A stretch of 64,000 nt of DNA from contig NZ_JAQNDL010000001.1 of NCBI RefSeq assembly GCF_028368995.1, positions 3,392,001 to 3,456,000 on the forward strand. The letters are read 5' to 3'. Below the pieces are notes generated by a model. It did not search any database, was not told where the DNA came from, and saw nothing but the letters and a program-made list of their open reading frames with translations. Shown piece by piece: positions 536 through 4,604 of the stretch (positions within the stretch are counted from its first letter, which is position 1; each line of letters opens with the position of its first letter). Source of the stretch: Nannocystis bainbridge. Lineage in GTDB: Bacteria > Myxococcota_A > Polyangia > Nannocystales > Nannocystaceae. The translations under genes and the position numbers were made by a program.

Positions 536-1918
536 TCACGGATCCGAGAGCAGGAGCAGGTTGGGGAAGCCGCCGAAGAGCAGGTCGTCGACGCCGTCGC
601 CGTTGACGTCGCCGACCGCGGTGTACGTCGGCGTGTCGACGCCCGCACGCGAGAGGGGCAACGGGGCGGGCGGCCACGGATCCTGGCCCAGCGCCGCCGT
701 GAAGCCGGACACGCCCCCGAGCGCCACGTCGAGGCGGTCGTCGCCATCGAAGCGTCCGCGCACGATGAGCGAGTACTTGTCGCCGGTCAGCACCGCCTCC
801 GGCTCGGCCAGCGTGCCATCGTCTTCGACGGTGAACGAGCGCAGCACCGCCTGCGCGTCCTCCTGAACCAGCACCACCAGCGCGGGCCGTTCGCCATCGG
901 CCGGATCGACGACCAACACCGGCCCGATCTCCCCGCTCCCGGTCAGCAACTGGCCCGGAGCGAAGGTCCCGTCCCCGGCGCCGAACATCGTCTCGATCGC
1001 ATCCTCCTCGGTCTGCCAGCGCTTGATCACCAGGTCGAGGTTGCCGTCCTCGTCGAGGTCGAACAGGACCACGCCATCTCGCACGATCATCGGCGCGGGG
1101 AACAAGTTCGAGGTGAACCCACCGAGGCCGTCGTTCAGCGCGACCGCGATGCCTCCGTTGTCGACGGCGACCACATCGAGGTCGCCGTCGCCGTCGATGT
1201 CGCCGTGGTCGCAGCCGCGCGCCTGCACCGGCAAGCCGATCGTGCTCGCCGGACCGAAGGCGCCCATACCTGTCCCCAGAGACAGCTCAGGATCGGAGTT
1301 GACGCCGCAGGCGAACAGGTCGGCCACGCCGTCGCCGGTGAAGTCGGCGAAGCTCATCTCGTCGGGGAACCCGAGCGGCTTCCACGTGGGCCCGGGGGTG
1401 AAGCCGCCCTGCCCGTCGCCCAGCTGGACGATGTAGCTCATGGCCGACATCGTCGCCACCTCGGCGGACGCTCCCAGCGGCAGCGGCTCGCTCGGATTCG
1501 GCGCCGGAACGATCGGCAACGGGAGCGCCTCGAGGGTGAACATGTCGAGGTGACCGTCGCCGTCGAAGTCGACGAACGTGACGTTCGAGATGAAGTCGAG
1601 GAAATCGAGCTCGATCGCCGCGAAACACAGCTCACCGGGCGTCGCCACGCCGTCGCCACAGCCGGCCTCGACAGGATCGCCGGTGGTGCTGGTCGTGCCG
1701 GTGCTCGTCCCGTCGCTCGTCGTCGTGCCCGCGGTCGTCGTCGGCGCTGTGGTCGACGTCGGGCCTCCTGTCGAAGAAGCGCTGACGCCGTCGCTGGTGG
1801 ACGTCGCGGCGCTCGAAGTGTCGCTCGATGTCTCGCCCTCGGTCTCGCTCCCGACGGGGTCGGGCGTACAGGCGAGCCCCGCGGCGAGCGCGAGCGCGAA
1901 GCAATCACGAACGATCAT
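536..1918 (-). CDS. FG-GAP/VCBS-repeat lipoprotein with Thr-rich stalk (3' exon of the group II intron)
   Basis: Lipobox LAAGLAC, Ser/Thr-rich linker, repeated DxDGDGxxD motifs (DFDGDGHLD, DFTGDGVAD, DIDGDGDLD, DVNGDGVDD). The ATG at 1918-1916 is the intron's 3' terminus; the original ATG is at 3933-3931. Confidence 0.85.
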   Translation of the reverse strand: MIVRDCFALALAAGLACTPDPVGSETEGETSSDTSSAATSTSDGVSASSTGGPTSTTAPTTTAGTTTSDGTSTGTTSTTGDPVEAGCGDGVATPGELCFAAIELDFLDFISNVTFVDFDGDGHLDMFTLEALPLPIVPAPNPSEPLPLGASAEVATMSAMSYIVQLGDGQGGFTPGPTWKPLGFPDEMSFADFTGDGVADLFACGVNSDPELSLGTGMGAFGPASTIGLPVQARGCDHGDIDGDGDLDVVAVDNGGIAVALNDGLGGFTSNLFPAPMIVRDGVVLFDLDEDGNLDLVIKRWQTEEDAIETMFGAGDGTFAPGQLLTGSGEIGPVLVVDPADGERPALVVLVQEDAQAVLRSFTVEDDGTLAEPEAVLTGDKYSLIVRGRFDGDDRLDVALGGVSGFTAALGQDPWPPAPLPLSRAGVDTPTYTAVGDVNGDGVDDLLFGGFPNLLLLSDP

Positions 1919-3930
1919 TGGTAGATCCTACCCTTCCTCTGCTTGAGCCGGAGGAAGGGCAGGACCCCCGTTCAAACCGTGCATGCGGATTTCCCGCACA
2001 CGGCTTACCGGTGGTCTCTCGAGCCGCCGCATTACGCGGCCTCCGGGTACTGCACGGTCCCCCGTAGACGGTGGAGACCGTGGTTGTGGAAGAAGTCGCG
2101 CGTCCAGCTCTCGACCTCACCTGCGCGGAGGTGCCGGCCCTTGCGCCTCATCATGAAGCGACGAAGGCGAGACCACACGTAGGTGTCGATCCGGTTGAAT
2201 TTCACGGCGGCGTTCCCGGTGCGGAAGTAGTTACCCCAGCCACGCAGCACCGGGTTGATGTCACGGATGATCACCCGCACATCTTTGGCCCCGTTGCGGT
2301 TCGAGCCGGTCAGCTCCTTCACGCGCTGCCGTGCCCGCGTCATGCTACGCGTCGAGGGCCAGCGCTGGAGGAAGTACACCCTGCGATGTTCCTTCTCCCA
2401 GATCGGCCCGGACATGCGCTTGCGCAGGTGGCAGCCGAGGAAGTCGAAGCCTTGCCGTCCCCAGCTCAGCTCGACTCGCCTCGTCTTCTCGGGATGCAGT
2501 TCCAGCTTGAGACGCCGCAGGATCTCGCGGACCCTGACCTCGGCCTCCTCGCACGCCTTCCTGGTCCCGCACAGGATCACGAAGTCGTCGCAGTAGCGCA
2601 CGAGCTCGCCCAGATGGGCGTGCCGTCGCTGCCACAGCTTGTCGAGGACACCGAGGTAGATGTTCGACAGCAGCGGTGAGATCACGCCGCCCTGGGGTGT
2701 CCCCGAGAGCATCGCCGTCACCTGGCCGTCTTCCATCACGCCGGCTTCGAGCCATTGCCGCACCAGCTTGAGGACCCTTCGATCCGAGATCCGCATCTCG
2801 ACGAGCTTCATCAGTCGCTCGTGATCGATGCTGCCGAAGTAGTCGCGGATGTCAGCGTCGAGCACATGGTTCCCACCTCGAGCTCCCAGCACGCGCAGTC
2901 GCTCGAGCGCCTGCGTCGCGCTGCGCTTCGGCCGGAAGCCGTACGAGCACGGAAGGAAATCCGCCTCGAAGATCGGCTCCAGCACCAGCTTCGCCGCCAT
3001 CTGCACCACTCGGTCCCGGACTGTCGGGATCCCCAGCGGCCGCTTCTTCCCGTCCGCCTTCGGGATGTACCGCCGCATGACCGCGCTCGGTCGGTACGTC
3101 CCGCCCTTGAGTTCGTCGGCGATCTCTTCGAGGAAGCGATCGACGCCGAGCTCTTCCACCTCGGCCAGCGTCTGGGCATCGACGCCCGCTGACCCCCTGT
3201 TCTTCTTCACCCGCCTCCATGCTTCCTTCAGGACGTCACGCCTGAAGATGCGGTCGTACAGCGCATGGAAGCGTCGACCCGGTTGCCGCTTGGCTGCGGC
3301 CCACAGTCGGCGTCGAAGTTCTCGCACTTTGTCACGCGGCCTGCGCCGCGTGGGGTGGTTGGGACCTGTCCTGCAGGCCATGCCCTCGCGCTTACCTTCT
3401 TCTCCGACACGACCACCCCAGGGGTCCTTCCCTCCGACTGCGTTGTTCTGCGCCGCCATCGCCGGTACTACGACCCCCTCGGACTCCCGCTGCACAGCGC
3501 TCGACTTCGCCTTCGGCTTATACGAGTCGCATCGCCCCGACACGGGCCGTGCAGACGGGCCTCTCCTGTTCCGCATCGCTCCTTGAACGCGTGCTGCGCC
3601 CCATACCCCGGGAGGACCCATCGCGCTTTCTGCTCCGGATGACTGCGCGGTGGGCGTGGCCTTCGCCGTGAGATGAGCGGCTCGGCTCCCCCATTGTTCA
3701 TCTGTCGAGGCTGCAGGCTTCACTTGATGTTGCGGCCCGCGTTCTTGCTCCCTCCGCAGAGGCTCTTGACGCCCCGCTCGGGCCGCGAGAATCTCTCCTC
3801 GCGCCTGGGGCCTGCTACCGGGCGCTCCGGCGCCTACCCGGGCGGGACTTTCACCCGCTGGAACGGTGCAGCATGACGCGGCCGAGCCGCCCCCTCCGGG
3901 GCCGAGCTCGTCCGCGTCGTCAGGACGCAC
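1916..3930 (-). mobile_element. Group II intron (ribozyme plus RT/maturase, no endonuclease domain)
   Basis: 5' end GTGCG at 3930. Domain V AAGCCGTGTGCGGGAAATCCGCATGCACGGTTT near 2006-1974. Domain VI hairpin GGTCCTGCCCTTCCTC...GAGGAAGGGTAGGATC with bulged A followed by CCAATG. J2/3 CGA at 3481-3479. RT ORF inside. Confidence 0.93.
2032..3381 (-). CDS. ltrA: Group II intron reverse transcriptase/maturase
   Basis: KVRELRRRLW, GSAGVD, RPLGIPTVRDRVVQ, SYGFRPKRS, DADIRDYF, GTPQGGVISPLLSNIYL, RYCDDFVI, FDFLG, maturase LRGWGNYF; no HNH domain. Likely start ATG 3381; the frame is open back to 3933. Confidence 0.95.
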   Translation of the reverse strand: MACRTGPNHPTRRRPRDKVRELRRRLWAAAKRQPGRRFHALYDRIFRRDVLKEAWRRVKKNRGSAGVDAQTLAEVEELGVDRFLEEIADELKGGTYRPSAVMRRYIPKADGKKRPLGIPTVRDRVVQMAAKLVLEPIFEADFLPCSYGFRPKRSATQALERLRVLGARGGNHVLDADIRDYFGSIDHERLMKLVEMRISDRRVLKLVRQWLEAGVMEDGQVTAMLSGTPQGGVISPLLSNIYLGVLDKLWQRRHAHLGELVRYCDDFVILCGTRKACEEAEVRVREILRRLKLELHPEKTRRVELSWGRQGFDFLGCHLRKRMSGPIWEKEHRRVYFLQRWPSTRSMTRARQRVKELTGSNRNGAKDVRVIIRDINPVLRGWGNYFRTGNAAVKFNRIDTYVWSRLRRFMMRRKGRHLRAGEVESWTRDFFHNHGLHRLRGTVQYPEAA

Positions 3931-4076
3931 CATCGCCCCACGCTATCAGACGCCGGCCGCGCGGTCGAGGGGCGCAGCGTCGACGAGGCTCCATGCCCGA
4001 GTACGCCCCGGGAACCTCCTTGCAGCGCTACGCACCTCGCCGCCACCGCAGCAGCGATCCGTCACACTTCGCTATC

Positions 4077-4223: not shown

Positions 4224-4604
4224 ATGATTTGCACGGTCTTCGCCAACGGGCGCGGTGTGGTCCACAGACAGAGCGGAGGCGTCAGCGTGGTGTTCCCGGA
4301 CGTGTGCAAGACGCCGACGCCGGGCGGCCCGGTGCCCATCCCGTATCCCAACACGGGCAAGGCTTCGGACACTTCCAAAGGGCCGAAGAGCATCTCGGTC
4401 GACGGTTGCATGCCGATGGTCGAGGGCGCCCAATACAGCCGTTCGTACGGGGACGAGCCGGGGACTGCCGGGGGCGTGATCTCGGGCACCAACCGAGGCC
4501 CCTGCGAGTTCATGAACTTCTCCTTCAACGTCAAGTTCGCGGGCAAGAATGTTTGCCGTCTTGGCGATCCGCTGCTGCACAACAAGAGGAACATCGGCGG
4601 GTGA
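4224..4604 (+). CDS. PAAR-like DUF4150 spike-tip protein
   Basis: TVFANG...FPDVCKTPTPGGPVPIPYPN...SYGDEPGTAGGVISG...SFNVKFAGKNVCRLGD, a typical DUF4150 pattern. Confidence 0.92.
   Translation: MICTVFANGRGVVHRQSGGVSVVFPDVCKTPTPGGPVPIPYPNTGKASDTSKGPKSISVDGCMPMVEGAQYSRSYGDEPGTAGGVISGTNRGPCEFMNFSFNVKFAGKNVCRLGDPLLHNKRNIGG

Follow-up and report, generated by a model that had tools for sequence, protein, structure and literature searches.

A stretch of 64,000 nucleotides (nt) from Nannocystis bainbridge (assembly GCF_028368995.1, contig NZ_JAQNDL010000001.1; hereafter the window, numbered from its first letter) carries on its minus strand an intact, recently mobile group II intron of 2015 nt (1916-3930), which sits directly behind the start codon of a lipoprotein gene and itself ends in AUG. 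Our analysis suggests that it is a member of a widespread and apparently undescribed intron lineage, found in many bacterial phyla, that inserts exactly after start codons. The members of this lineage encode a reverse transcriptase (RT)/maturase without an endonuclease (En) domain, and we consider it probable that their insertion behind the start codon goes together with a TAnnnT hexamer lying 6-8 nt upstream of it.

The intron has the main hallmarks of its kind. It begins GUGCG, its RT/maturase open reading frame (ORF) lies in domain IV, and a domain V of 34 nt with an AGC triad (1973-2006; supported by the fold and by Rfam RF00029, Intron_gpII, with 42 bits against a gathering score of 40) is followed by a domain VI (D6) helix (1920-1969) that covaries among relatives. 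In the minimum free energy (MFE) fold of the 3' end there is a single bulged A at 1922, at position -7 from the end, followed by two base pairs and then by the four free bases AAUG. The intron ends in UG, and the AY 3' end that is usual for group II introns is therefore absent. Domain 1 (D1) to D4a spans 549 nt (3930-3382), and the conserved D1 motif begins 70 nt from the 5' end. The Rfam model D1D4-4 matches with 80.6 bits and D1D4-6 matches in part; the D1D4 families do not correspond one-to-one to intron classes, and an assignment by Rfam was set aside and the class left open. The intron-encoded protein (IEP) of 449 amino acids (aa), read from a conserved internal ATG (2032-3381), consists of RT and maturase (X) domains with a YCDD motif (Pfam RVT_1, 4.5e-34; GIIM, 8.3e-17). 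About 33 aa remain between GIIM and the C-terminus, and the Pfam search found no HNH or En family after GIIM. Its matches in the PDB are group II RTs; no close named relative was found in the PDB and plasmid searches, the best plasmid-borne RT outside the lineage being at most 40% identical. The 5' exon ends ...GGGGCGATG (...TGATAGCGTGGGGCGATG at the end of the 5' flank), its last three nt being the host ATG (3931-3933), and the 3' end of the intron at 1916 reads ...TAGGATCTACCAATG (...GGAUCUACCAAUG). The 3' flank starts ATC GTT CGT GAT TGC TTC GCG, and ATG joined to ATC GTT CGT opens an FG-GAP repeat lipoprotein of 460 aa (536-1915 from codon 2), which has a signal peptide and a lipobox-like LAC and is 70-71% identical to its orthologues in the genomes G005 and G003. 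A preliminary description of the same DNA had proposed a minus-strand group II intron with GTGCG at 3930 after ATG, a bulged A and the end CCAATG at 1916, and the sequence, the Rfam and Pfam matches and the fold agree with it.

The ends of the mobile unit were fixed by comparing copies with empty sites. The genome of the window (G000; 11.05 Mb in 5 contigs) contains three copies of the intron at 99% identity, the one in the window and two more, and the first 250 nt of the intron have 15 matches in the congeneric genome G001, 9 in G007, one of them a fragment without the 5' end, and 7 in G010. All three G000 copies share the 5' flank TGATAGC-N6/7-CGATG and the 3' end CCAATG, the ATG of which is in frame with three different ORFs, namely the lipoprotein of the window, a Ser/Thr kinase (Pkinase) and another lipoprotein. 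Five sites that are occupied in congeneric relatives have an orthologous empty site in G000, and in all five the host start codon is directly joined to the base that follows the RTG of the intron, as in GGCCGCGTG[GTGCG...CCAATG]GTGCTCGCC occupied and GGGCGCGTGGTGCTCGCT empty. The lipoprotein gene of the window has intron-less orthologues in G003 (TAGCGT-GGAACC-ATG-CCT GTT CGC) and G005 (ATG CCT GTC CGC), both with the expected junction. Among the copies in G007 the 5' host codon is GTG in three and ATG in two, and the 3' triplet is ATG in every one; because the 5' codons vary while the 3' triplet is constant, the 5' codon is that of the host and the 3' ATG belongs to the mobile unit. The mobile unit is thus GTGCG...CCA(A/G)TG, with the terminal ATG (1916-1918, directly before host codon 2 and in frame with it) included, and precise excision gives ATG|ATC... 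and an intact lipoprotein gene. The earlier proposals that a cut after AATG restores the lipoprotein and that the intron carries its own AUG are upheld by the five empty sites, which have the host codon only, by the two intron-less orthologues and by the constant 3' ATG in G007. A 3-bp target-site duplication was considered and is ruled out by the three G007 copies with GTG in front and ATG behind. An 18-nt conserved leader moving with the intron was likewise rejected, as 2-4 of the 18 leader positions vary between copies with 99%-identical introns and similar intron-free sites exist in the genome.

Two incomplete copies were also seen, a fragment of 131 nt at 88% identity (L004, G000:C5:495445-495575) and an internally deleted copy of 897 nt (L050, G010:C1:7331433-7332329), which sits at TAAACT-N6-ATG and ends CCCATG. 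In addition, two species carry an intron at the start codon of the same orthologous lipoprotein gene (L003 in G000:C2 and L049 in G010:C1:6404814-6406802). The two introns are 69% identical at the nucleotide level and their RTs fall into clades I and III, which suggests independent invasions of a single, apparently leaderless start.

The position behind a start codon is shared by nearly all copies in the genus and in the wider family. Of 33 5' junctions in four congeneric genomes, 19 come after ATG, 13 after GTG and one after AGG, so that 32 follow a start codon, and TAnnnT stands at a spacing of 6-8 nt in 31 of the 33. The hexamer of the window is TAGCGT (3945-3940), 6 nt before the ATG and with an upstream TG (3940-3948, within TGATAGCGT), and TAnnnT-N6/7 is found in all three G000 copies. 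A protein-guided scan of one genome per species returned at least 593 stretches encoding relatives, and the best 80 of these were analysed. Ten of the 80 loci constitute an outgroup with other ends (RT 51-54% identical by tblastn) and the remaining 70 are the ingroup. The 5' junction was mapped in 65 of the 70 ingroup loci, where the preceding codon is ATG in 53, GTG in 10, TTG in one and ATT in one, and TAnnnT is present at a spacing of 5-8 nt in 61 of 62 (6 nt in 40, 7 nt in 18 and 8 nt in 3). Of 63 mapped 3' junctions, 62 end in ATG or GTG: CCAATG occurs in 57, CCAGTG in 3, and CCTATG, CCCATG and CCAACG (the exception) in one each. Behind the terminal triplet an in-frame ORF of at least 80 codons is present in 49 of 55 informative loci by our own count. 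That the element homes to initiation codons, as had been proposed, is therefore the rule in the genus and among the relatives (64 of 65); the expectation that other copies would lie after ATG is true of start codons in general, GTG and TTG being used as well.

The ingroup extends over Myxococcota, Planctomycetota, Acidobacteriota, Pseudomonadota, Actinomycetota and other phyla, with hosts recorded as Sorangium, Nannocystis, Archangium, Planctomycetota, Acidobacteriota, Steroidobacteraceae, Burkholderiales, Spirochaetia, Acidimicrobiia, Solirubrobacterales, Embleya, Pseudonocardia and Mycobacterium simiae. The 5' end is GUGYG in 48 of 65 relatives. Seventeen of 69 family members, most of them in an actinobacterial clade, begin UUGCG, UCGCG or UUCGU, with CCAAUG and CGA unchanged (L077, L079, L080, L084, L085, L088, L092-L094, L097, L100-L104, L106 and L115); this trait requires 10 changes on the RT tree, and a first base other than G is odd for a branching intron. 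In L089, from an uncultured member of the Acidimicrobiales, the distance from the 5' end to the RT match is 1387 nt rather than the usual 520 or so, D1-D3 containing an insertion of about 860 nt. A full-text search, the reach of which did not extend to the earliest descriptions of intron clades, turned up no account of group II introns that lie at leaderless starts or have a terminal AUG, and the parts consulted of two surveys of intron neighbourhoods (PMC7306698, PMC8919778) do not mention start codons. An earlier description of the lineage is possible, though less likely than not.

Recognition of the target appears to involve the start codon itself. The preliminary description had placed exon-binding site 1 (EBS1) in the CATC at 3729-3726, in AACAUCAAG. 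This loop exists but is unchanged when the target changes: it remains CAUC in G001, where the target is GGUG, and in G010, where it is CAUG, and its AACAU(C/G)A also occurs in outgroups with other targets. For this loop the family-wide complementarity was scored with a regular expression, possibly out of register in distant clades, and the comparison within the genus was relied on. The CAUC at 3675-3672, in the loop of the D1 hairpin GCCG-CUCAUCUCA-CGGC (3665-3681), does covary with the target in five lineages of the genus. The pairs are CAUC with GAUG in G000, CAUG with C(G/A)UG in G007 (four of five targets), CACU with GGUG in G001, and CAUG with CAUG in G010 and L049. Across the family this loop can pair with exon positions -1, -2, -3 and -4 in 60, 61, 60 and 57 of 61 loci, respectively, and four independent CAC variants are found at GTG targets only (10 of 10 sites in G001, and L082, L086 and L105). 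Covariation thus identifies CAUC 3675-3672 as the predicted EBS1, pairing with the last 4 nt of the 5' exon, in which the start codon forms the core of intron-binding site 1 (IBS1). G001 has two subfamilies, one with CACU, GTG targets and the end AGUG, the other with CAUG, cATG targets (4 of 4) and the end AAUG. As EBS1, target and 3' end have changed together here, we considered whether the terminal RUG mimics IBS1 and pairs with EBS1; this is ruled out by L082 and L105, where CAC occurs together with a terminal AUG, and by L063 and L069, where CAU occurs together with GUG. Two intron-free look-alike sites at ORF starts in G000, TGATAGCGT-CGCGGCG-ATG-AAG (C1:3299221, plus strand) and TGATAGACT-CGCGGCG-ATG-CAG (C3:1282377, plus strand), are candidate unoccupied targets for an intron with a CAUC EBS1.

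What the lineage conserves ahead of host codon 2, at the 3' end of the intron, is a start codon. A different possibility is that the terminal RUG serves the ribozyme, through the geometry of the 3' splice site, and not translation, the start codon being a by-product. This would account for the presence of UG in 62 of 63 relatives, including clades without a Shine-Dalgarno (SD)-like word or an open frame upstream, and for the terminal G (..CUAG) in the terminator-associated sister group. That sister group ends in UAG and not RUG, however, and position -3 in the lineage is exclusively A or G. Moreover, the triplet always abuts host codon 2 in frame and has long ORFs behind it, and it does not covary with EBS1, as the four loci L082, L105, L063 and L069 show. 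A role in the ribozyme alone is for these reasons unlikely, and a start codon supplied by the intron is the reading that we prefer.

The association with TAnnnT and start codons could in principle be a matter of survivorship rather than targeting. The ribonucleoprotein (RNP) would then need only the 4-nt IBS1 and insert widely, and only copies behind leaderless starts would persist, where they are transcribed and harmless. Consistent with this, the EBS-IBS pairing that covaries is only 4 bp long (no systematic search for an EBS2 was made), the spacers between the -10-like hexamer and ATG differ among copies of one intron, and there are two off-pattern copies (L038 and L154). The hexamer is nevertheless present at 31 of 33 junctions in the genus and 61 of 62 in the family, near-identical and hence young copies included, and its spacing is skewed to 6 nt, with 40:18:3 junctions at 6, 7 and 8 nt as against 405:374:265 gene starts in G000. 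Decayed off-target copies, which should be common if survivorship were the explanation, are absent from the 31 matches listed for three genomes. Survivorship therefore seems rather improbable, and targeting of the start codon remains the better explanation.

The exact register of splicing is suggested by several features of the intron. All ingroup loci but one (69 of 70, L115 having no J2/3 match) have GUC-CGA at J2/3, with CGA at 3481-3479 in the window and gamma being the C at 3481. In outgroup loci in which Rfam places the 3' end, the first base of J2/3 tracks the last base of the intron: AGA goes with ...CUAU (L128), GGA with ...GAC (L127) and CGA with ...CUAG (L124). The pairing of gamma C with a terminal G that had been proposed for the window, and the covariation expected of it, thus find support in the outgroups. 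The register GUGCG...AAUG is favoured by the 5' consensus, by J2/3 and by the branch A, which lies at -7 as it does in the sister group. Registers slid by 1-2 nt look alike at the DNA level, since TG occurs both in the flank and at the intron end. In a slid register the intron would lie inside the start codon (AU|G GUGCG...CCAAU|G), have a canonical AU end and resemble the groEL introns, which are placed between the second and third base of a stop codon. The spliced mRNA and the DNA would be identical in either register, which makes the empty sites uninformative, and a slid register would restore the 5' G in the UUGCG/UCGCG sublineage (17 of 69). Most members, on the other hand, would then start GGUGCG, the branch A is at -7 only with an intron that ends in G, and the C of J2/3 is kept in all clades, the UUGCG ones included, where it pairs with the terminal G as in the outgroup locus L124. 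We accordingly consider a slid register improbable and keep to an intron that ends in AUG.

The targets look like leaderless gene starts, because TAnnnT 6-8 nt upstream is a mark of leaderless genes. In Mycobacterium tuberculosis a TANNNT motif is centred 7-12 bp before the transcription start site (TSS), and 22-26% of genes are leaderless (PMC3898074, as far as the sections used here go). Across G000, TAnnnT-N6-RTG occurs 893 times and is followed by a coding-like open frame in 405 cases; the figures for TAnnnT-N7-RTG are 810 and 374, and those for TAnnnT-N5-RTG 445 and only 59. The control hexamer ATnnnA gives 132 coding-like cases at N6 and 115 at N7. These counts indicate that the hexamer is a feature of the host and not only a cue for the intron, and we infer that the TSS falls on the start codon of these genes. 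Group II intron proteins recognise bases in the distal 5' exon. TAnnnT might on that account be only a recognition motif of the intron protein, in genes that are not leaderless, and the account of protein recognition in the relevant part of PMC12584367 would be in keeping with this. We think it distinctly improbable, since hundreds of intron-free coding starts in G000 are preceded by the hexamer at this spacing, a strong enrichment, and since hexamer and spacing fit both the TANNNT -10 element and its distance from the TSS, as given in the sections of PMC3898074 cited above; the leaderless reading is retained.

The preliminary description had also noted that a cut after the canonical AAT gives a stop, and ATG+GATCGTTCGTGA does stop, although an in-frame GTG start (GTG GGG CGA TGG ATC) was overlooked. 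A canonical 3' end, with an intron that ends CCAAU, a 3' exon that starts with G and an intron-less gene reading ...ATGGATCG with the lipoprotein translated from the upstream GTG, would have the usual AY and, 9 nt upstream in L003 as in the window, a GTG in frame, but is scarcely credible, as the extra G is absent from all five empty sites and both intron-less orthologues, L002 would have no in-frame start, gamma is C and not A, and the branch A would move to -6.

The host start codon also opens a long frame into the intron. The ORF list contains a frame of 633 codons (2032-3933) that runs from the ATG of the 5' exon (3933) through D1-D3 into the RT, the stretch before the RT ORF (3382-3933) being free of stops. 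The frame is open in 17 of 20 full-length copies of the genus, the three exceptions having 1-nt indels, and in the 69%-identical variant L049 despite indels. On an RT tree made with FastTree the window falls into clade I of 32 rows, 26 of which are loci of the 80-locus scan with a mapped 5' junction. In 23 of these 26 the frame of the host start codon continues into the RT without a stop; the other two frames have on average 6 stops over this stretch, and the D1-D3 stretch in clade I has 11 different lengths (525-615), all multiples of three. The open-frame trait requires only six changes on the IEP tree. In L049 and L158 (G010, clade III) the frame from the host ATG is open for 659 codons and stops with a TAG in D6, 9 nt before the terminal ATG.

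From these data a model can be drawn up. A host promoter would fire at the start codon, the RNA starting with the A or G of that codon, and the transcript would carry a 5' exon of only about 3 nt. Ribosomes loading on the 5'-terminal AUG may read through D1-D3 into the RT. The terminal AUG before host codon 2 would allow unspliced RNA to yield the host protein, for instance if ribosomes re-initiate after terminating at the RT stop, which lies 113 nt upstream, and splicing would restore a leaderless mRNA. For site-finding beyond the 4 bp of pairing, the RNP might have TAnnnT read by the protein or might recognise the melted promoter. That the RNA begins at the start codon, that an exon of 3 nt is spliced and that translation takes either route is inferred from the DNA.

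Several observations weigh against this model or parts of it. A register slid by 1-2 nt could leave both DNA and mRNA unchanged. Efficient ligation of the exons is doubtful, because a 5' exon of 3 nt would be held by only 3 base pairs. No spliced joint at 1915/3934 was found in assembled RNA contigs (Logan), which cannot show transcript starts and weigh neither way on splicing. The frame from the host start codon is open in only 5 of 39 loci outside clade I and is lost in most of the actinobacterial clade. Throughout the lineage the RT keeps its own ATG behind AGGUAAGCGYGAGGGC, and the upstream frame may serve another purpose; because of this conserved ATG, read-through from the host AUG could be at most an added route to the RT, and we regard its existence as evenly balanced. 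Only 18 of 63 relatives have an SD-like word before the terminal AUG, 15 of 26 in the clade of the window and 3 of 37 elsewhere. The AGGA (1929-1926) that the preliminary description had read as a ribosome-binding site 7 nt before the terminal ATG is at the position given, but it forms the 3' strand of the D6 helix, and a ribosome-binding site is no conserved trait of the lineage. Lastly there are off-pattern copies: L038 is antisense inside a gene and without TAnnnT, L154 is without TAnnnT, and the fragment L148 follows AGG.

Among the RNA contigs, run X1 has one of 1921 nt over 2012-3932, and metatranscriptome contigs of relatives lie inside the intron (1959-3919). A metagenome contains one joint at 1579/4088; one of its sides is 24 letters long, it disagrees with the intron ends, and it was taken as spurious. 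Run X1 also has a contig of 172 nt over domain V (1975-2005 of the window), with a word depth of about 3196 compared with 18.5 in the rest of the intron.

Introns at start and stop codons are known from a IIB1 clade that includes Avi.groEL and EcKTE56.groEL and is credited by Gomes et al. 2025 to Michel et al. 2007 (PMC12584367). In the passages of that paper considered here, these introns have a CL1 RT with a C-terminal endonuclease domain and a subdomain Ia of 300-700 nt at the base of D1, they reside in housekeeping genes of proteobacterial hosts, and their manner of site-finding is stated to be unknown. Like the lineage described here, they are tied to initiation or termination codons, and their insertion rebuilds the codon (UAA to UAG there, a start codon here). 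Of the traits of that clade, however, the window intron shares the insertion at a start or stop codon and has neither the endonuclease domain nor the large subdomain Ia, only about 70 nt separating its 5' end from the conserved D1 motif, and its lineage is present in many phyla and in diverse host genes. Going by the available parts of the clade's description (PMC12584367), the lineage appears distinct from the IIB1/CL1 introns, and unrelated to the Azotobacter groEL introns, to which the preliminary description had pointed as introns that prefer start or stop codons.

Class C (IIC) introns insert after terminator hairpins or attC sites, and a 2015 review, in the section drawn on here, recognises only three target specificities, namely homing sites, terminators and attC (PMC4424553). 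The lineage resembles class C in its En-less protein, its apparently very short IBS1 pairing, its many sites per genome and its apparent use of a functional genomic landmark in place of a long homing site, but its 5' flanks read TAnnnT-N6-8-RTG and not hairpin plus T-run. Closest to it is a sister group (L122-L129, from Paenibacillaceae and Pelosinus) with an RT that is 51-54% identical, a D1D4-4 match, J2/3 NGA and a branch A at -7, most members of which end in G (..CUAG) with gamma C; these introns differ in that they are not at start codons and end in UAG or UAU rather than RUG. Upstream of L124 is a cspA-like region with a T-run at its end, and L129 likewise comes after a T-run, which gives targeting in the sister group a terminator-like look. 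In the yeast mitochondrial introns aI1 and aI2, which are organellar IIA introns with long 5' exons, the protein likewise continues the reading frame of the upstream exon; in the lineage described here, the start codon would be all that the exon contributes, and an internal ATG is conserved besides. L159 of Sinorhizobium meliloti, which we take to be RmInt1-like (RmInt1 homes to an insertion sequence (IS) element), also has an RT/maturase without an endonuclease domain, but its RT is only 34.7% identical and its ribozyme matches Rfam D1D4-3 and D1D4-1, not D1D4-4.

Set beside the three specificities named above, the lineage may represent a fourth mode of targeting, a proposal that we put forward tentatively and as somewhat short of probable. 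In it an En-less lineage would use the leaderless promoter/start-codon unit as its landmark, leaving a 5' exon that is AUG only, taking over the host AUG for its RT and giving a replacement AUG in return. The landmark, on the same tentative footing, would be the -10 hexamer or the melted open complex combined with 3-4 bp of pairing to the start codon. We speculate with similar caution that a leaderless gene is in this way made into a two-cistron message, and that splicing reverses the change.

On the other side of the insertion, 290 bp upstream of the host start codon, lies a divergent gene (4224-4604, plus strand) for a Tox-PAAR-like protein of 126 aa (Pfam 3.3e-40).

The lineage would provide a second and much larger test set for the question of how introns colonise start and stop codons, which is raised in the part of Gomes et al. 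2025 (PMC12584367) referred to here. An EBS1 of 4 bp combined with a promoter-proximal cue may offer a new principle for the aiming of targetrons. Gene callers will mis-start or split host genes of this kind and miss the intron, as at the Embleya match, beneath which there is no annotated feature. The lineage would also show, in nature, how splicing proceeds when the 5' exon is perhaps as short as 3 nt and the 3' end departs from AY and is matched by a C-G gamma pair. It would tie the biology of a retroelement to leaderless translation, a mode that abounds in Actinomycetota and, judging by the motif count, in G000 as well. The prevailing view is that bacterial group II introns persist by hiding in mobile elements, behind terminators or in attC sites. 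A large lineage residing at the first codon of ordinary chromosomal genes would alter this picture of where such introns survive.

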